Below the pieces are notes generated by a model that did no database searches, was not told the origin of the DNA, and worked only from the letters and a program-made list of their open reading frames with translations. DNA of 11,243 nt from a virus, in the IMG/VR virus record IMGVR_UViG_3300045988_173323; one strand, 5' to 3'. Positions within the stretch are counted from its first letter, which is position 1, and every line of letters begins with the position of its first letter. A program made the position numbers and the translations under genes. Shown piece by piece: positions 256 to 11,243 of this stretch.

Positions 256-288
256 ATACATTACCTCTTTCTTTCTTTTGATATAATA

Positions 289-297
289 ATTATATCA
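289..297 (-). promoter_or_regulatory. Extended -10 promoter (TGaTATAAT on the minus strand) for gene 1..255, with no good -35.
   Basis: Minus strand reads ttaTGATATAATtattatatcaaaagaaagaaagaggtaATG. The same -10 to leader architecture recurs at the other minus-strand promoters. Confidence 0.5.
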
Positions 298-314
298 TAA
301 TTTTTAAAAAAAAT

Positions 315-352
315 AAAGTTATATAAATATAAACAACTATTTATATAACTTT
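315..352 (-). terminator. Rho-independent terminator for the 944..378 operon.
   Basis: Perfect 15-bp stem: aaagttatataaata (315-329) pairs with tatttatataacttt (338-352). On the minus strand it is followed by a T-run (plus 301-314 is A/T-rich, aaaaaaaa). Confidence 0.6.
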
Positions 353-1072: not shown

Positions 1073-1088
1073 ATAAAATAAAATTAAA

Positions 1089-2201
1089 TTAAAGTGCATA
1101 ATGAATTCTTTCACTAGGAATTTTTTTAATCAGCATATATTCTGGTTTTGCAGAAATATATTTATTGTAAAGCTCTAAGCTTTGTTTAACTTCTGAATCA
1201 TTTAAGCTTTCATTAATAACACACTGTAAAGATTTACCTGGAATAATACAGCCATGTTCTTTATTGTAAATAGCATCTTTTGGGTTGAAAGTACACATTA
1301 GTACGTCAAACTTAAAAACGCTATCTTCAAATTCATAGATTCTGCTCTTATTATCAAACATATCTACTAAACAATGGGGACATTCCGCAATAGCTCCATT
1401 CGAAAAATGAATAGTTAAATTATAATTATCACCAGTAAGATGCAAAATATTCAAATCTTTAATAGCCTCTTCAAAAGTTTCTTCGTTTTGTAATTCAAAA
1501 GCAATGGCTCTTAAACAATCATAATTCAAATATATTTTTTCTGAAAAACTAATTATTTTATCAATTTCTTTATATTGAGATTTTAAGAGATGATCTTCCA
1601 TATACTCACGAATTTCCTCTGGGGTCGGATATTCAAAGCGGAAGTGATAATGAAAACGCCCTGGTCTATTAACTAAATAATTATTTAATCCTGTTAAAAT
1701 ATTACAAGTAATAACAAAAAGTTTTTTACCCATGGCTATTCCATCAAACAAACTTAGCAATTCTGTTTGAGCTTTTTCATTTCCACTTCTGGAAAAAGTC
1801 TTATCAAATTCATCAAAAAGAATTATCACTTCTTGATTAATAGAGTTAAGATAACTTGCTATACCAGGTATATAGTTATTGACAATAATAATTGGATAAC
1901 CTTTTTTAATACCTTCAATAGCAAGAAGTTTTGAGAATAGAGATTTACCAATCCCTTTATCCCCGCTTAATATAACTCCTAAGTTGCGGTCAAATTTAGC
2001 GTAAGACCTTAGTACTTTCTGTACTTTTGATAAATGGACACCATAAATTTTTTCATTTACTTTAATTTCTGCATATTTTTCTAAAGAAAAACCAGAATTG
2101 GGATTAAAACAAACTTGATACGATTGCGGCGGAAGTTGCGTATAAATTTGCATACTGTCATCATAAATTTTAAAGTTATTTCCAGTATTTATTGCTCTCA
2201 T
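1089..2201 (-). CDS. AAA+ ATPase, classic clade, with a C-terminal Cys-containing domain.
   Basis: 370 aa. Walker A GDKGIGKS (aa 80-87). Walker B IILFDEFD (126-131). Sensor-1 VITCN (N167). RPGRF arginine-finger region (179-183). The C-terminal 100 aa carry CPHC...C...HGC...C. RBS aaaggaatactttATG. Confidence 0.85.
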   Translation of the reverse strand: MRAINTGNNFKIYDDSMQIYTQLPPQSYQVCFNPNSGFSLEKYAEIKVNEKIYGVHLSKVQKVLRSYAKFDRNLGVILSGDKGIGKSLFSKLLAIEGIKKGYPIIIVNNYIPGIASYLNSINQEVIILFDEFDKTFSRSGNEKAQTELLSLFDGIAMGKKLFVITCNILTGLNNYLVNRPGRFHYHFRFEYPTPEEIREYMEDHLLKSQYKEIDKIISFSEKIYLNYDCLRAIAFELQNEETFEEAIKDLNILHLTGDNYNLTIHFSNGAIAECPHCLVDMFDNKSRIYEFEDSVFKFDVLMCTFNPKDAIYNKEHGCIIPGKSLQCVINESLNDSEVKQSLELYNKYISAKPEYMLIKKIPSERIHYAL

Positions 2202-2250
2202 AAAGTATTCCTTTCTTTTATTTATATTATAGTATATTTTTTTAAAAAAA

Positions 2251-2757
2251 TCAATTCCAATTTTGCACGATTCTCAGAGGAGCGTTACAACAACCAGAAG
2301 CCAAAGCACTTTCTCCTCTTGTTAAAGAGGAAGAAACATCTCCACGAGCTACTAGTTTACCGCATTTTTTGCAATAGATTTCATACTTATACAGATCACG
2401 ATGAGGTTTCCATATCTGTCCTTCCGCGAATCGTTTAGGATTTTTAATTCCCATTCTTCGCATCTCTGCTTTCCAATACATATCATGACCATGAGGTTTT
2501 CCAGTATCCCATATTACAAAAGCATGAGCCAATTCATGCATTGTCGTAGTAATAATTGCTTCTTTTGTTCCAAATTTTAATAATTTTTCAGAAAATTCAA
2601 TAGATTCAATGTTCATAGTACGATCATTTGTATGTTCAAATACAACTCGACCTAACATAGTAACTAAATTAGGATTAATTACGATTGGACAGTAAATTGT
2701 TTTATTTCTTTCTTTTGCGATATAATTACATAAGCTAAGCATTTCTTTTTCAGTCAT
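2251..2757 (-). CDS. SprT/Wss1-like zinc metalloprotease with C-terminal zinc-ribbon-like Cys cluster.
   Basis: 168 aa. HExxH motif TTMHELAHAF. Downstream H (GKPHGH). C-terminus YCKKCGK...GCCNAP. RBS gaagaggtatataatatATG. It sits 50 bp upstream of, and co-oriented with, the ATPase gene, so an operon is likely. Confidence 0.75.
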   Translation of the reverse strand: MTEKEMLSLCNYIAKERNKTIYCPIVINPNLVTMLGRVVFEHTNDRTMNIESIEFSEKLLKFGTKEAIITTTMHELAHAFVIWDTGKPHGHDMYWKAEMRRMGIKNPKRFAEGQIWKPHRDLYKYEIYCKKCGKLVARGDVSSSLTRGESALASGCCNAPLRIVQNWN

Positions 2758-2821
2758 ATATTATATACCTCTTCATATTTTATTTTATTTCATTTCAATA
2801 GAGAATTACAGTATTAATTCT

Positions 2822-2841
2822 TAGTTAATTGTTATTAACTA
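2822..2841. promoter_or_regulatory. Operator-like palindrome (8-bp arms, 4-bp spacer) in the leader of the SprT-ATPase operon.
   Basis: tagttaat-tgtt-attaacta, with perfectly complementary arms. It lies between the minus-strand TSS at about 2861 and the start codon at 2757, and is adjacent to the divergent HTH gene. Confidence 0.45.
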
Positions 2842-2867
2842 TATAACTTTTTTCTTTTAATATATAT

Positions 2868-2896
2868 ATTATATTATAATTTTATAAAAAAATCAA
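2868..2896 (-). promoter_or_regulatory. Sigma-A-type promoter (TTGATT, 17 bp, TATAAT) for the 2757..1089 operon.
   Basis: Minus strand reads caTTGATTtttttataaaattataaTATAAT. The -35 is plus 2891-2896 and the -10 is plus 2868-2873. Confidence 0.5.
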
Positions 2897-2924
2897 TGAG
2901 AAATTATCGGCAAGTAGTTAAATA

Positions 2925-2953
2925 TTGAAAAAGTATAAAAAATATGTTATAAT
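2925..2953 (+). promoter_or_regulatory. Sigma-A-type promoter (TTGAAA, 17 bp, TATAAT) for the plus-strand operon 2988..4311.
   Basis: TTGAAA at 2925-2930 and TATAAT at 2948-2953 with an exact 17-bp spacer. It is back-to-back with the divergent minus promoter. Confidence 0.6.
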
Positions 2954-2987
2954 ATTTAATATAAACAAGAGAAAAGAGGACACGGGA

Positions 2988-3164
2988 TTGACAAGAGAAG
3001 AATTAAGTGCGGAATTGGGTATAAGTGAGAATAGAATATTACGTCACTGGCGGGAAGTGTGTAATAGCTATGAGCGGATTGGGATTAAGTTGATTAAAAG
3101 AGGGAAGGGAAAAAACGCGGAGTATGGTATTTTAAAAAAAGACGAGACTGTAGCAAGATTTTAG
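2988..3164 (+). CDS. Small helix-turn-helix DNA-binding protein (about 59 aa) with a probable TTG start. Candidate regulator of the divergent operon.
   Basis: The track ORF begins at TTG 2925, which is itself the -35 of the promoter. In frame, TTG 2988 is preceded by AAAGAGGA at 7-nt spacing. The product MTREELSAELGISENRILRHWRE... has an HTH-like segment. Confidence 0.55.
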   Translation: MTREELSAELGISENRILRHWREVCNSYERIGIKLIKRGKGKNAEYGILKKDETVARF

Positions 3165-3174
3165 AGGAGAATAT

Positions 3175-3444
3175 ATGATAACGGTTGAGAATATTACAAA
3201 TGGAACTGTAAATACATATAGCAATTTTGGTTGCAATCACATAAATATAGAACAAAATAAAAAAGAAGGTTGGGGAATATGTAAATATCTCGTTTCTGGA
3301 GAATTGTGTTTGTGCGGCAAGGAGAAGATTTTAATGAAAGATATTGGTAATAATTGTACTAGATGTCTTTCATATGAACCAGAACCAGAAGAAGAAGAAG
3401 AGGAAGATTTTGACGCGGATGAAGCTGACTATGAAGATCTTTAA
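3175..3444 (+). CDS. Cys-rich small protein with a highly acidic C-terminal tail.
   Basis: 89 aa. RBS GGAGaatatATG. Six Cys (C20, C36, C45, C47, C61, C64 in GCNH...C...CLC...CTRC). Tail EPEPEEEEEEDFDADEADYEDL. Confidence 0.7.
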   Translation: MITVENITNGTVNTYSNFGCNHINIEQNKKEGWGICKYLVSGELCLCGKEKILMKDIGNNCTRCLSYEPEPEEEEEEDFDADEADYEDL

Positions 3445-3649: not shown

Positions 3650-3693
3650 ATATTTTAAGTATAAATTTTATGTTTAAATATAAGGAGGGAAAT

Positions 3694-4311
3694 ATGGAAA
3701 TTCAAAAAAATTCAAGGCAAATACCTAGTAATAAAATTTATACTGCTAACAAGAAGTATTCAGATATTCTATATGGATATTTACAACATAATTCTCTTTT
3801 AGACAAAGAGTGCGGAATTAGGTATATACTTAAAAAAGATATTAGCTTCGTAAAAATTGCTAATGAATTAAAGATGCATAGACAAACAGTTTCAAATAAA
3901 TTTAAAGTTTTGATAGAACAAAATTTGATTAGATACAATGAAGAATTAAAAAGATATGAATTAGTTACTATTGATAAAACATTAGCAACTTTATTGCCAG
4001 ATGAAACAGTTAGGATTTGTTATAACACTTTGCAAGATAGATGTTTAAGTATATTGGCTTATTTATTAAAAACTTATATTCAACATAATGAATCTTCTTG
4101 TCAAATAAATTTAGATGTTATAAAAGAATATGTTGGAATTTGTGTTTCAAATAGAGGGTGTAATAATCAGGTTATAAAGGATAGTCTTTTAATATTGCAA
4201 AAGTTAGGTTTTATTCAGTACCATACAGAAAGAAAATTAGATGAGGAAACAGGTGGTATAAGAACTATTTATATTTTAGATAAAGTGTATAATTTTGTTA
4301 CTTTTGATTAA
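3694..4311 (+). CDS. HTH-containing DNA-binding protein (205 aa). Function is undetermined: regulator, or possibly a replication/initiator-type protein.
   Basis: Start moved to ATG 3694 (TAAGGAGGgaaatATG). Track start 3670 has no SD. HTH-like segment: IANELKMHRQTVSNKFKVLIEQNLI. Confidence 0.8.
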   Translation: MEIQKNSRQIPSNKIYTANKKYSDILYGYLQHNSLLDKECGIRYILKKDISFVKIANELKMHRQTVSNKFKVLIEQNLIRYNEELKRYELVTIDKTLATLLPDETVRICYNTLQDRCLSILAYLLKTYIQHNESSCQINLDVIKEYVGICVSNRGCNNQVIKDSLLILQKLGFIQYHTERKLDEETGGIRTIYILDKVYNFVTFD

Positions 4312-4341
4312 AAGATATAGTAAATAAAATACTAAGTAAAA

Positions 4342-4498
4342 TTGCAAAATGTCGAAAAAGTGTAACACAATATAATAGTAGAAGTAATTTCATTACTTCG
4401 TATTCAAGCACTTCGTGCTTTCATACTCGTAATGAAATTACTTCTTAGCCGCCGATAATTTTGCAAAATGTCGAAAAAGTGTAACACAATATAATAGT
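4342..4498. repeat. 38-bp exact direct repeat (4342-4379 and 4461-4498) flanking a 66-bp inverted-repeat element (4380-4445).
   Basis: DR is ttgcaaaatgtcgaaaaagtgtaacacaatataatagt. Each copy carries TGTCGAA at 4350-4356 / 4469-4475 and a TATAAT. The element between them has 17-bp perfect outer arms (agaagtaatttcattac / gtaatgaaattacttct) and an inner gcac-ttc-gtgc hairpin. Confidence 0.8.
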
Positions 4499-4570
4499 GG
4501 TATTAAAATTATACCAGAAATATTATATTATATATTATACATAACTATTATATAATAATAATAATAATAT

Positions 4571-4607
4571 AGGTAATGTATCATACCGAAGGTATGATAC
4601 ATTACCT
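4571..4607. repeat. Perfect palindrome or hairpin (17-bp stem, 3-nt loop) preceded by an (ATA)n run.
   Basis: aggtaatgtatcatacc-gaa-ggtatgatacattacct. No flanking T-run on either strand, so not a canonical terminator. Confidence 0.75.
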
Positions 4608-4619
4608 TAGTGTAAATTA

Positions 4620-5400
4620 AAATGAAGAGTTTTATGCGGGGTGGGGTATTTAGTAGTTGAATCCGCTTTGTTTTAGAGGGACTCTTGTTTAATTTTAAAA
4701 TGTCAAGGAACGTTTTAAAAAATGATTTGAAAATTTTAAGGTTTAAGTAAATTAGGAAAGTTTTTCGGAAGGCATGAGAAAAAGTAAGAAAAGAAGTATG
4801 GTATATTTAGAGAATGGCAAAGAATATTACTGAATAATAACAAAGAGTTAGAGAGTTTTGTTAAAAACGAGTTATGGTTTTTTGGTTAGAAAAGTGTGGA
4901 AGAGGGTATTTAAATTATAAGAGAAGTATGGGAGTGCGGAATTGAATTTAATTAAAGTGCTTCCGCATTTAAAAAGCAAGGTTAAATAAAAATTGCGGGT
5001 TACAGAATTGCTTAAATAAAATTATTAAAATTTTGCGTGAGGAGTTTGATTTTGGAGAGAATTAAGGGTAGCTTTAATAAAATATAAAGATTGGATTAAA
5101 GGTGCGTAAGGTTAAGATAATAAAATATTTTAGAATTAGAGGGAATTGAGGATAGGTTAGCAAAAATAATAAGACTGAGCAAAGAGAATTTAATGTTTGG
5201 GTTAAGAGAAAGTATAAGTTAGATTAAGAGAGAAGAAGGTTGAAGTATATAAAATAATAAGCGGAAGTGAGGATTTTGAGATTGGGTTAAGAGAGGAGTG
5301 AGATTAGAGTGAGAGAGCGTAGAATTGGAGTGTAGAGAGGATGAGAGTGAGGCGTGAGTGGAGAAAGGATAGAGCGAGGCTGAAAAAATGCGAGAAAAAG
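4620..5400 (+). other. About 780-bp strand-asymmetric non-coding tract. The + strand is purine-rich and nearly C-free (roughly 35 C, about 4-5%).
   Basis: I counted C per 60-nt line; nearly every line has 1-4, and 4921-4980 has 6. No ORF of credible composition exists on either strand. GAG/GTGAG-rich degenerate repeats occur, e.g. gggttaagaga twice and GAGGAnTTTGAnnTTGG twice. It lies between convergent genes. Confidence 0.7.
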
Positions 5401-5403
5401 GTG

Positions 5404-5441
5404 AAAAAAATTGTGAGAGTGAAGTGCTCAGCCTCACTCTC
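5404..5441 (-). terminator. Rho-independent terminator for gene 5463..5858.
   Basis: Stem gagagtga (5415-5422) pairs with tcactctc (5434-5441). On the minus strand it is followed by T7 (plus aaaaaaa 5404-5410). It lies 22 bp past stop 5463. Confidence 0.65.
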
Positions 5442-5462
5442 CCTATCCTACCTCAGAGCTCT

Positions 5463-5858: not shown

Positions 5859-5905
5859 AGTATGTTCTCCTTTTGAAATGTTTATTTGTTTTTCTTTATG
5901 TATAT

Positions 5906-5934
5906 ATTATATCAAAAAATTATAGAAAATTCAA
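5906..5934 (-). promoter_or_regulatory. Sigma-A promoter (TTGAAT, 17 bp, TGaTATAAT) for 5463..5858.
   Basis: Minus strand reads ccTTTGAATtttctataattttttgaTATAAT. The -35 is plus 5929-5934 and the -10 is plus 5906-5911. Confidence 0.6.
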
Positions 5935-6175
5935 AGGGGAAGACATCTTTCTAGCTATTGTTGGGCTTAATTAGTTTCCAAAAATTTTAAATGAGATAAG
6001 GCTCGACGTAAAAATGGAAGGCGGAAAATAAAAATGGCTTTTTTTACTATTGTATCATATATTTTGTTAAAAATCAAGCGGAGAGAGGTGAGGTATGTTG
6101 AAATTGCGGGATTCTAGAGTAGTGATTCAAAATTCCAAACATCTAGCGAAAAAGCCCATATGGACGATCTTTGGG

Positions 6176-6523: not shown

Positions 6524-6919
6524 TTACTCCTCTACAGCTTCCTCTTCCTCTTTTGCAAGAGAGAAATAAGGAACTCTTTTTTCAACTGTTCTAACTACCT
6601 CTCCAGATTCGATAAGCTGTTTAAGAAGAGCCGATAATTTCTGAGAAGAAAGTTTACTCATTTCAGAGTTTTCCTTAATCATGGTTGAAACTGTAACAGG
6701 TTTATCAAATAACTCCAAAGCTACAAGAATAAGTTTTTTGACTTCCTCATTTTCTTTCTGGTTTTTGGTTTTTTTACCGCTGGAAGATTTTTTATTCAAC
6801 AGCTCGATTTCATGTCTGAGAAAGTTAAGTGCTTCTTCTTTTGGTTCAAAGCTACTTTCTTCCAGAAAAGCACTGATAGTTTCAAACCAATCTTTTTTTG
6901 TCATTTTGTCTTTCATCAT
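6524..6919 (-). CDS. Small acidic-tailed protein with a conserved C-terminal winged-helix-like domain (family A, copy 1), about 131 aa.
   Basis: Start set at ATG 6919 (GAGGTaatgaatATG, 7-nt spacing). It is paralogous to 9103..9510, with a near-identical C-terminal half PVTVSTMIKENSEMSKLSSQKLSALLKQLIESGEVVRTVEKRVPYFSLAKEEEE. Confidence 0.8.
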   Translation of the reverse strand: MMKDKMTKKDWFETISAFLEESSFEPKEEALNFLRHEIELLNKKSSSGKKTKNQKENEEVKKLILVALELFDKPVTVSTMIKENSEMSKLSSQKLSALLKQLIESGEVVRTVEKRVPYFSLAKEEEEAVEE

Positions 6920-6952
6920 ATTCATTACCTCTTTCTTTCTTTTGATATATTT

Positions 6953-6981
6953 ATTATAGCATACTTTTTTGTTTTTGTCAA
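6953..6981 (-). promoter_or_regulatory. Consensus promoter (TTGACA, 17 bp, TATAAT) plus conserved leader. Part of a roughly 62-bp near-identical repeat copied at 7208-7270.
   Basis: -10 is plus 6953-6958 and -35 is plus 6976-6981. The leader aaatatatcaaaagaaagaaagaggta runs into the ATG. Confidence 0.65.
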
Positions 6982-7012
6982 TTACTTTTTTTATTTTTTT
7001 CTTTTCTGGTGC

Positions 7013-7201: not shown

Positions 7202-7234
7202 AGACAATACCTCTTTCTTTCTTTTGATATATTT

Positions 7235-7263
7235 ATTATAGCATACTTTTTTGTTTTTGTCAA
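7235..7263 (-). promoter_or_regulatory. Consensus promoter (TTGACA, 17 bp, TATAAT). Second copy of the promoter-leader cassette.
   Basis: Sequence 7208-7270 is nearly identical to 6926-6988. -10 is plus 7235-7240 and -35 is plus 7258-7263. Confidence 0.65.
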
Positions 7264-7278
7264 TTACTTTTTTATTTT

Positions 7279-9102: not shown

Positions 9103-9510
9103 TTACTCTTCTTCCTCAACTTCTTCTTCTTTTGCAAGAGAAAAGTAAGGAACTCTTTTTTCAACTGTCCTGACCACTTTGCCTGCCTCAATCATTTTTT
9201 TCAACAGTGCAGATAACTTCTGAGAAGAAAGCTTACTCATTTCGGCGTTCTCTTTAATCATTGTAGTTACCGTGACAGGTTTACCAAACAGCTCTAAGGC
9301 AATTCCAATAAGTTCCATAAGCTCCTCATTTTCTTTAATGTGAGCTGTTTTCTTTTTGCCTGGTGCTGAAGATTTCTTATTTAACAGTTCAATCTCGTGA
9401 TTGATGAAGTCAAGTGTTTCTATTTTTTTGTCAAAGTTTTCGGTTTTTTCTACGATGCCAACCAGCAGTTTGAAAAAGTCTTTTTTTGTCATTTTTGTTG
9501 TGTTTGTCAT
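9103..9510 (-). CDS. Family A copy 2: small acidic-tailed protein with a winged-helix-like C-terminal domain (135 aa).
   Basis: RBS AAGAGGAatttaattATG. The C-terminal half is nearly identical to the 6524..6919 product. Tail EEEVEEEE. Confidence 0.8.
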   Translation of the reverse strand: MTNTTKMTKKDFFKLLVGIVEKTENFDKKIETLDFINHEIELLNKKSSAPGKKKTAHIKENEELMELIGIALELFGKPVTVTTMIKENAEMSKLSSQKLSALLKKMIEAGKVVRTVEKRVPYFSLAKEEEVEEEE

Positions 9511-10374: not shown

Positions 10375-10422
10375 GTTACATCACATCCTTTTTAAAATTT
10401 ACTATTAACTTGTTACAATGGT

Positions 10423-10451
10423 ATTATATCGCACCTTAGCTTAAAAGTCAA
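10423..10451 (-). promoter_or_regulatory. Consensus promoter (TTGACT, 17 bp, TATAAT). Part of a 52-bp exact repeat that also occurs at 11191-11243.
   Basis: -10 is plus 10423-10428 and -35 is plus 10446-10451. The -35 overlaps the TGA stop of the upstream gene. Leader contains ATTGTAACAA. Confidence 0.65.
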
Positions 10452-11158
10452 GCATTTTCGTGTAATTCTTTTCTTTTTTTCTGCGGCAGTCTCCAACATG
10501 ACGGCTTAATACTTCTATCCATTTTTTTATGCTGGTCAAAACATTTTTTCATAATTTCAATTTCAATTTTTACATCTTCTAAACCTGTATGAGATTCTAC
10601 AAAATCAATATTCTTTTTAATATATTTATAGCATACCTCAGCGTTAGTTAAAAGATTGCCTTTTTCAGACTCAAATCCGTTTTTCTCAGCAAATTTGATA
10701 TAGGTGTTTGTACTTAAAATCATCTGGCAAGCCATATTCCAAATACAAAAATATTCTGTGCCATAAGGGAAAAACCAGCGAATAAAACTTTTGCTATGGT
10801 ATCTAATAGCATTGTTTAATGCTTTTCTATCAAAATTCATATTGTAAGCACCAACTTTTTTCACATTATATTCTTTCATGTCTGCAAACATCTGTTTTCT
10901 AATATTGAAGATGCTTTTCATGGTTCTTTTTCCGCTTTTTAAATCATCCCAATATTTTGGGATTTTTTTAGCGTAGTAGGCACTATTCATAGCTTCTTTC
11001 AAGTCAATAAATGTCTCAGCGACTACAAAGCTTCTTTCGGTGACAATGTTACCGTGTCTATCTGCAATAGCATAACCAATATCATAAGGGATTGGCTCAT
11101 TTACACTATTCGCAGTTTCTGTATCCAATACCATGAAAAACTCTTTTCTTCTACTCAT
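10448..11158 (-). CDS. DEDDh-family 3'-5' exonuclease (DnaQ/RNase T-like), about 236 aa.
   Basis: Exo I MVLDTETA. Exo II YNMNFDRKAL. Exo III ESHTGLEDV. Start at ATG 11158 (GAGGAaatcaaaaATG); the track TTG start at 11173 is unlikely. Confidence 0.8.
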   Translation of the reverse strand: MSRRKEFFMVLDTETANSVNEPIPYDIGYAIADRHGNIVTERSFVVAETFIDLKEAMNSAYYAKKIPKYWDDLKSGKRTMKSIFNIRKQMFADMKEYNVKKVGAYNMNFDRKALNNAIRYHSKSFIRWFFPYGTEYFCIWNMACQMILSTNTYIKFAEKNGFESEKGNLLTNAEVCYKYIKKNIDFVESHTGLEDVKIEIEIMKKCFDQHKKMDRSIKPSCWRLPQKKRKELHENA

Positions 11159-11213
11159 TTTTGATTTCCTCAACTTTCATTTATTTTTTTTACTATTAAC
11201 TTGTTACAATGGT

Positions 11214-11242
11214 ATTATATCGCACCTTAGCTTAAAAGTCAA
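11214..11242 (-). promoter_or_regulatory. Consensus promoter (TTGACT, 17 bp, TATAAT) for the exonuclease gene. Second copy of the 52-bp repeat.
   Basis: Identical to 10400-10452. -10 is plus 11214-11219 and -35 is plus 11237-11242. Confidence 0.65.
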
Positions 11243-11243
11243 G

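Follow-up and report, generated by a model that had tools for sequence, protein, structure and literature searches.

Adjacent SprT-like protease and AAA ATPase genes in the promoter-cassette array of a Herelleviridae-like gut phage

A SprT-type protease encoded beside a classic AAA ATPase recalls the partnership of Wss1/SPRTN with Cdc48/p97 in DNA–protein crosslink repair. Such a gene pair lies in a stretch of viral DNA of 11,243 nucleotides (IMG/VR record IMGVR_UViG_3300045988_173323; the whole stretch is called the window below), and an earlier note on this DNA had taken the two genes for a self-contained, repressed module that parallels Wss1/SPRTN–Cdc48 and resembles defence systems. The parallel does not extend to the architecture of the proteins. 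Human Spartan and yeast Wss1 carry ubiquitin-, SUMO-, PCNA-, and p97-binding tails, none of which is present in the window protease, whose 168 aa hold the catalytic domain and a zinc ribbon only; the FxGxGxxL and RxxxxAAxxR motifs (SHP, VIM) are absent from it by direct reading. Likewise, Cdc48 has an N domain and tandem D1/D2 modules, while the 370-aa window ATPase has a single AAA module and no Cdc48-type N domain. The two window genes also occur independently of each other.

Other described proteins and gene arrays share part of this layout. The classic AAA proteins (FtsH/paraplegin, Cdc48/p97, NSF, BCS1, and B. subtilis YjoB) have Walker A/B motifs, sensor-1, RPGRF with two arginine fingers, and the AAA fold in common with the window ATPase, which differs from these relatives in its single module, its unique beta-rich C-terminal domain, and its lack of a protease domain, a transmembrane segment, and a double-psi-barrel N domain. 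Herelleviridae early regions, including the SPO1-type "host-takeover module", are arrays of small genes near the genome end, with each gene behind a strong host-sigma-type promoter and a ribosome-binding site (RBS). Compared by description, the window has a similar array layout, and its genes are presumably expressed early. Like ArdC, the anti-restriction protein of conjugative plasmids (PMC7213743), the window SprT would be a Spartan-related zincin expressed by a mobile element upon cell entry.

Promoters and co-occurrence of the SprT and ATPase genes

We consider it probable that the SprT and ATPase genes are two independent, early-expressed phage genes within a cassette array, and not a dedicated two-gene system under the control of a repressor. 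Under this explanation, the early region would be built of near-monocistronic cassettes, each with its own strong sigma-70-type promoter, leader, and RBS. The site that separates the divergent early promoter from the ATPase cassette would have received SprT cassettes, and in other lineages lost them, which would give adjacency without obligate pairing, and a small helix-turn-helix (HTH)-like gene would head the opposite, rightward early unit.

The tight operon that had been proposed, with its own promoter and a strong terminator, stands in part. The open reading frames (ORFs) are indeed 49 nt apart, the SprT gene has a promoter, and the terminator 3' of the ATPase gene is very stable (dG −20.8 kcal/mol, z −7.4; 0 of 200 shuffles as stable), but the gap between the genes carries a second, complete promoter. 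A scan identifies three good sigma-70-type promoters around these genes, one on the plus strand and two on the minus strand (Table 1). Specifically, the SprT and ATPase promoters are two copies of the same promoter/leader/RBS cassette (family D1 of a repeat search), which is present in at least seven copies in the window (269–324, 954–1009, 2206–2261, 2848–2903, 5886–5941, 6933–6988, and 7215–7270) and lies 5' of most minus-strand genes. Its consensus is a −35 element TTGAT/TTGAC, 17 nt, and TATAAT, followed by an RBS of the AAAGAAAGAGG type. Each gene has its own promoter cassette, and SprT and ATPase are therefore separately promoted units.

Equivalent cassettes are present in the related loci L008, L009, L113, and L202. 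The ATPase promoter is kept in L003, L005, L007, and L111, with an equivalent one in L202, and in two of these loci (L003 and L005) the ATPase gene is absent while its promoter is retained 5' of the next gene. The SprT promoter is nearly invariant among relatives, and the divergent plus-strand promoter is invariant in L003, L004, L005, and L007.

A dedicated two-gene system should have homologues that co-occur across lineages, and this is not what we find. Neighborhoods of the ATPase were collected from 80 IMG/VR loci together with L001, L002, and L007, which group into 27 lineages at 90% identity. Only two of these viral lineages, L007 and L008, have SprT within 5 kb of the ATPase, and the reciprocal comparison gives an ATPase within 4 kb of SprT in 1 of 23 IMG/VR SprT loci, again the L008 contig. 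No SprT is found within 4 kb of the ATPase in 80 bacterial-genome loci with full-length homologues (45–55% identity), nor is there a SprT neighbor of the ATPase in EF24C and MT835544. A tblastn search with SprT returned no match at 1e-5 in 50,697 phage records. We also searched for other metalloproteases beside ATPase homologues with an HExxH pattern; besides the L008 SprT, its two matches were a reverse transcriptase in L077 and a small unrelated ORF, and both were rejected as non-proteases.

Within the clade of the window, the pair occupies a syntenic slot defined as the first gene or genes of the leftward unit, adjoining the divergent small gene. Both genes are found there in four lineages (window/L111, L007, L008/L196, and L202), the ATPase alone in another four (L113, L009, L010, and L017), and SprT alone in three (L003–L006, L198, and L200). 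The adjacency is facultative, because either gene occurs without the other at the same slot; it recurs in one clade, is facultative in both directions, and is absent elsewhere. For example, comparison with L003 shows window positions 1075–2217, which hold the ATPase gene, as a clean indel. We considered whether promoter cassettes had simply recombined to produce it, but the boundaries fit poorly and L003 has 90 bp of unique sequence there, so we make no claim for such an origin.

Several points limit this explanation. The scan places no terminator between SprT and the ATPase in the window, and transcription of SprT thus probably continues into its neighbor. A gap of just 14 nt, without a promoter, separates the pair in L008/L196, where the two genes are thus co-transcribed. 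Within this one clade, four lineages that have diverged fairly far (SprT identity down to 39–48%) all carry SprT directly 5' of the ATPase, and this recurrent adjacency is compatible with a loose functional link. Presence and absence in the clade were scored at the syntenic slot only. The probable biochemical roles of both proteins are read from family membership only, and the literature searched on phage and bacterial SprT and on Herelleviridae AAA ATPases yielded no functional study of either family.

The leading alternative is a facultative protease–unfoldase partnership, in which the AAA ATPase would extract or unfold DNA-bound or complexed host proteins and SprT would degrade them, as a viral analogue of Wss1/SPRTN with Cdc48/p97. 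We regard this as unlikely, though better placed than the other alternatives. The recurrent adjacency, the 14-nt gap of one lineage, and the probable read-through are in its favor, as are a protease fold nearest to the Spartan SprT domain and an ATPase of the classic clade, to which Cdc48 and FtsH belong. Against it, either gene is retained intact at the slot where the other is missing, in the four ATPase-only and three SprT-only lineages listed above, co-occurrence is nil outside the clade, and the ATPase has a promoter of its own; the lack of a Cdc48-type N domain, of a second AAA module, and of SHP or VIM motifs in the protease also speaks against the parallel drawn earlier. A more specific version is more doubtful still—i.e. 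that the two proteins, when both present, might cooperate at the start of infection by stripping and degrading DNA-bound host proteins, such as nucleoid proteins, defence nucleases, and covalent adducts. If it were true, the pair would be the viral equivalent of Wss1/SPRTN and Cdc48, and the broader distribution of the ATPase would follow from its also acting by itself or with different partners. Overall, two independently gained and lost cassettes remain the explanation we favor.

The protease and ATPase families

The identification of a SprT-like protease with an HELAH motif and a cysteine ribbon is borne out. The protein scores 43.6 bits (E 2.9e-11) with the SprT-like profile Pfam PF10263, whose cut-off is 25.6, and HELAH, the downstream HGHD, and CxxC...CC are conserved among relatives. 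H74, E75, and H78 are invariant, and the third ligand, H91 of HGHD, is present in at least 90% of 37 homologues. The fold is nearest to the Spartan SprT domain (PDB 6mdx). With 24.6 bits (cut-off 113) and 23.9 bits (cut-off 175), the protein does not reach the NCBIfam equivalog thresholds for bacterial SprT. Both genes are under purifying selection, with dN/dS values against the L007 orthologues of 0.28 for SprT and 0.16 for the ATPase. Taken together, profile, motifs, and fold identify the protein as a predicted SprT/Spartan-type zincin, and it may serve as an accessory Spartan-type protease, cutting host or DNA-bound proteins soon after infection begins.

Unlike bacterial SprT, Spartan, and Wss1, this protease is phage-encoded, and close relatives carry between 0 and 2 copies of its gene, with some of the copies at these loci being frameshifted. 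For example, the orthologue of the window SprT at about 8290 in L003, and likewise in L004, L005, and L006, has lost 1 nt from the A-run that directly follows HGHDMYW, which leaves a protein of 134 aa without the zinc ribbon. The deletion is seen in four independent assemblies, and the ATPase is missing from all four loci. Small indels also occur in the L004 and L005 copies of SprT-A, an upstream paralogue. Closely related jumbo phages carry 1–3 copies of SprT-like peptidases in a variable manner (PMC7824862), and the copy-number variation in this clade matches that published pattern.

The claim of a classic-clade ATPase also holds: Walker A (GDKGIGKS), Walker B (ILFDEFD), sensor-1 (TCN), and NRPGRF are invariant across 30 homologues. 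The "extra Cys-bearing C-terminal domain" fares less well, as it has no conserved cysteine. The Pfam AAA profile matches at 35.1 bits against a cut-off of 21.2, and the best sequence matches in the PDB are paraplegin, Afg2, and p97; the AAA fold is confirmed, with classic-clade AAA proteins as the nearest solved relatives. The phrog_2376 profile covers residues 1–284 (E 5.7e-102). The protein begins with a short N-terminal beta region (residues 1–42); a single AAA module follows, and the C-terminal domain, to which no fold is assigned, is rich in beta structure. We thus take it to be a stand-alone, conserved member of the classic AAA clade. Because Walker A and B are intact, two arginine fingers are present, and a near-invariant Y110-x-P112-G113 stands at the position of pore loop 1, it would be expected to assemble into a ring that unfolds or remodels other proteins, and to be produced early in infection.

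At its extreme C-terminus (window 1089–1103), the ATPase has a conserved tail, (I/L)-H-Y-(A/T)-(V/L), which is predicted to be disordered and is similar to the tails by which some AAA partners dock. An assignment as an HbYX-type docking motif was rejected, given that the tyrosine is third from the end and not penultimate, and that some homologues have extra residues.

The ATPase family is large: 394 phage records match, and over 3,900 proteins do so in the databases at E ≤ 0.001. Its range covers the early regions of Herelleviridae and other large phages, conjugative elements, and Lachnospiraceae chromosomes. Full-length homologues that are 38–47% identical, with the same motifs and length, are found in Herelleviridae and other phages of the Gram-positive hosts Enterococcus, Bacillus, Lactobacillus, and Staphylococcus, and distant phrog_2376 members include phi92 gp221 and Phapecoctavirus ATPases. 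In 28 of the 80 genome loci (L122, L134, L138, L140, and others), a lone full-length homologue with 47–49% identity keeps the same place in the Lachnospiraceae chromosome. The order there is two gene pairs for aconitase-family small and large subunits, the ATPase, and a convergent low-molecular-weight phosphotyrosine phosphatase. Other bacterial homologues adjoin PcfJ-like genes of conjugative elements or a MoxR-like AAA_5 gene with a CobT/vWA gene. In two other phage lineages, the gene immediately 5' of the ATPase homologue encodes a reverse transcriptase (L086 428–1558 and L077 2688–3827; Pfam RVT_1, E 3.5e-19 and 2.4e-17, respectively), with a 4-nt overlap between the two genes in L086.

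An alternative role for the ATPase is that of a replication factor—i.e. a clamp loader, or a loader or regulator of the DnaC or Hda type—with SprT being unrelated to it. Some homologues are annotated in GenBank as "replication factor C subunit 1", "regulatory inactivator", or "replicative helicase". The clamp-loader family phrog_168 matches weakly (E 1.7e-4), and the next rightward cluster encodes a winged-helix protein with matches to ScpB and to replication-initiator-like PHROGs. By contrast, the second region of homology is an invariant NRPGRF with two arginines, as is typical of classic AAA proteins, the SRC motif is absent, and homologues stand as single genes amid metabolic genes in Lachnospiraceae chromosomes. 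A clamp loader of the RFC or gp44 kind is thus neither the best profile or structure match nor suggested by the motifs, and we find this alternative very improbable. The check for a clamp loader, a match to which would have counted against the two-gene system of the earlier note, leaves the assignment of the ATPase to the classic clade in place.

The likeness to defence systems also finds little to stand on. In PADLOC-DB, the only match is a partial one of the ATPase P-loop region (residues 40–132) to PDC-S73 (E 6.9e-6), with none for SprT or the HTH-like protein.

The palindrome and the HTH-like gene

The perfect 8-4-8 palindrome that had been read as an operator is present, as TAGTTAAT-TGTT-ATTAACTA, but its origin is a different one. 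The corresponding bases in L003, L004, L005, and L007 open the coding sequence of SprT-A (GTGATGCAGTTAATGACAATTAAA, encoding MMQLMTIK), and the arms there pair over only 5 bp. SprT-A is absent from the window, where positions 2791–2824 stand in place of L003 7504–7964. Because the homologous bases encode the start of SprT-A and the window has deleted that gene, the palindrome is a mutated remnant of the 5' end of SprT-A. About 17 distinct sites in the window have perfect inverted repeats of at least 8 bp, and the palindrome as an RNA hairpin reaches only −5 kcal/mol (z −1.8). It is neither beyond chance nor conserved.

Regarding the divergent gene, the back-to-back promoters are confirmed, but the start codon and the HTH assignment of the earlier note are not. 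The gene most likely starts at TTG 2988 and encodes 58 aa, and not at TTG 2925 (79 aa): an RBS (AAGAGG) lies 8 nt 5' of TTG 2988, this codon aligns with the ATG start of the L009 homologue, and TTG 2925 coincides with the −35 hexamer of the gene's own promoter. HTH matches of the 58-aa protein in Pfam are sub-threshold only (E 0.003–0.06). Homologues occur in L003–L007 at 88–97% identity and in L009 at 40%, with a 65-aa one in L113. The gene is thus kept beside the ATPase-only loci L009 and L113, and no homologue was found in L008, which carries both genes. Nothing ties it specifically to SprT or to the ATPase.

These results leave the repressed module, in which the small HTH protein would bind the palindrome as an operator and repress a SprT–ATPase operon, as the least probable of the alternatives, and we set it aside: the perfect palindrome in the SprT leader and the back-to-back promoters of a divergent HTH-like gene favor it, but the palindrome derives from SprT-A codons whose arms pair over 5 bp, lies about 20–40 nt downstream of the transcription start, past the −10 element and without promoter overlap, has no second copy in the window with up to 3 mismatches allowed, and is of a kind common in the AT-rich DNA of the window, while the HTH assignment is sub-threshold and the distribution of its gene does not follow that of the pair. 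Neither a conserved operator at the promoter nor a regulator that co-varies with the genes is found. With separate promoters and independent presence and absence of the two genes in addition, the claim of a self-contained, repressed two-gene module finds no support.

Genomic setting and neighboring genes

The region of the window is 86–99% identical to metagenome contigs of 129–142 kb, and megablast against phage and plasmid collections gave no near-identical match to the whole window. The best ATPase matches among phages are from Enterococcus Herelleviridae (e.g. EF24C gp215), and the exonuclease-like neighbor gene matches Enterococcus phages of 134–142 kb. Based on the contigs of its relatives and on these two sets of matches, we infer that the window is an early-gene region of a large (about 130–140 kb), Herelleviridae-like human gut phage, with "early" following from promoter type and layout. 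The GC content of the window is 30%, and tRNA and Rfam scans of it gave no match. The features at and around the two genes are listed in Table 1.

Table 1. Coordinates of the SprT and ATPase genes, their signals, and the divergent gene in the window.
Feature	Position	Strand	Remarks
Intrinsic terminator 3' of ATPase gene	1033–1073	−	19-bp stem, 3-nt loop, T-run
AAA ATPase, 370 aa, phrog_2376	1089–2201	−	ORF and profile matches
ATPase promoter TTGATT-17-TATAAT	2226–2254	−	Inside repeated cassette copy 2206–2261; −35 overlaps SprT stop codon
Predicted SprT/Spartan-type zinc metalloprotease, 168 aa	2251–2757	−	HExxH and HGHD, C-terminal CxxC...CC zinc ribbon
Deletion junction and remnant of lost upstream paralogue SprT-A	2791–2841		Includes 8-4-8 palindrome 2822–2841
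SprT promoter TTGATT-17-TATAAT	2868–2896	−	Inside cassette copy 2848–2903
Divergent promoter TTGAAA-17-TATAAT, rightward early genes	2925–2953	+	TG-extended, 11/12 matches
Small HTH-like gene, 58 aa	2988–3164	+	First gene of rightward early unit; probable start TTG 2988

Directly 3' of the HTH-like gene, window positions 3175–3444 encode an 89-aa protein with several cysteines and a strongly acidic tail (EPEPEEEEEEDFDADEADYEDL), for which none of the profile libraries searched gave a family match. The 213-aa winged-helix gene of the next rightward cluster (3670–4311) is replaced in related loci by GIY-YIG homing-endonuclease-like genes of 204–206 aa (L004 412–1032, L111 672–1286, and L112 470–1084).

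It is followed by about 1.15 kb without a credible ORF (4312–5462). This stretch opens with two 51-nt direct repeats (4337–4387 and 4456–4506) and long hairpins (e.g. 4577–4601), and its plus strand is extremely C-poor and G/A-rich between 4620 and 5440, with a GC skew of up to +0.79. It sits in a segment that is about 92% identical in L003, and has no tRNA or Rfam match; a non-coding RNA, an origin, and a long leader are candidate roles for it.

Further repeats are found elsewhere in the window. A perfect 55-nt direct repeat (10398–10452 and 11189–11243), which contains a TTGACT-17-TATAAT promoter, flanks the 241-aa exonuclease-like gene (phrog_20187). Two paralogous pairs are also present, 6524–6925 with 9103–9510 and 9–185 with 689–865, with 76% DNA identity over 177–234 nt; their products are 133- and 135-aa acidic-tailed proteins and a 100-aa protein family, respectively. 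These pairs point to local duplication of cassettes.

Both the SprT-like protein and the ATPase are fresh members of known families, and no named system matches the pair, as had been noted from the outset. As a claimed new system, the locus matters little, given that its genes are separately promoted and are gained and lost separately. It is, in turn, a clear natural example of cassette turnover, with SprT insertion, duplication, decay by frameshift, and deletion between repeated promoters. The ATPase belongs to a large, uncharacterised classic AAA family that may represent an unfoldase-like protein deployed by mobile elements on entry, and as such would be a reasonable target for functional work.

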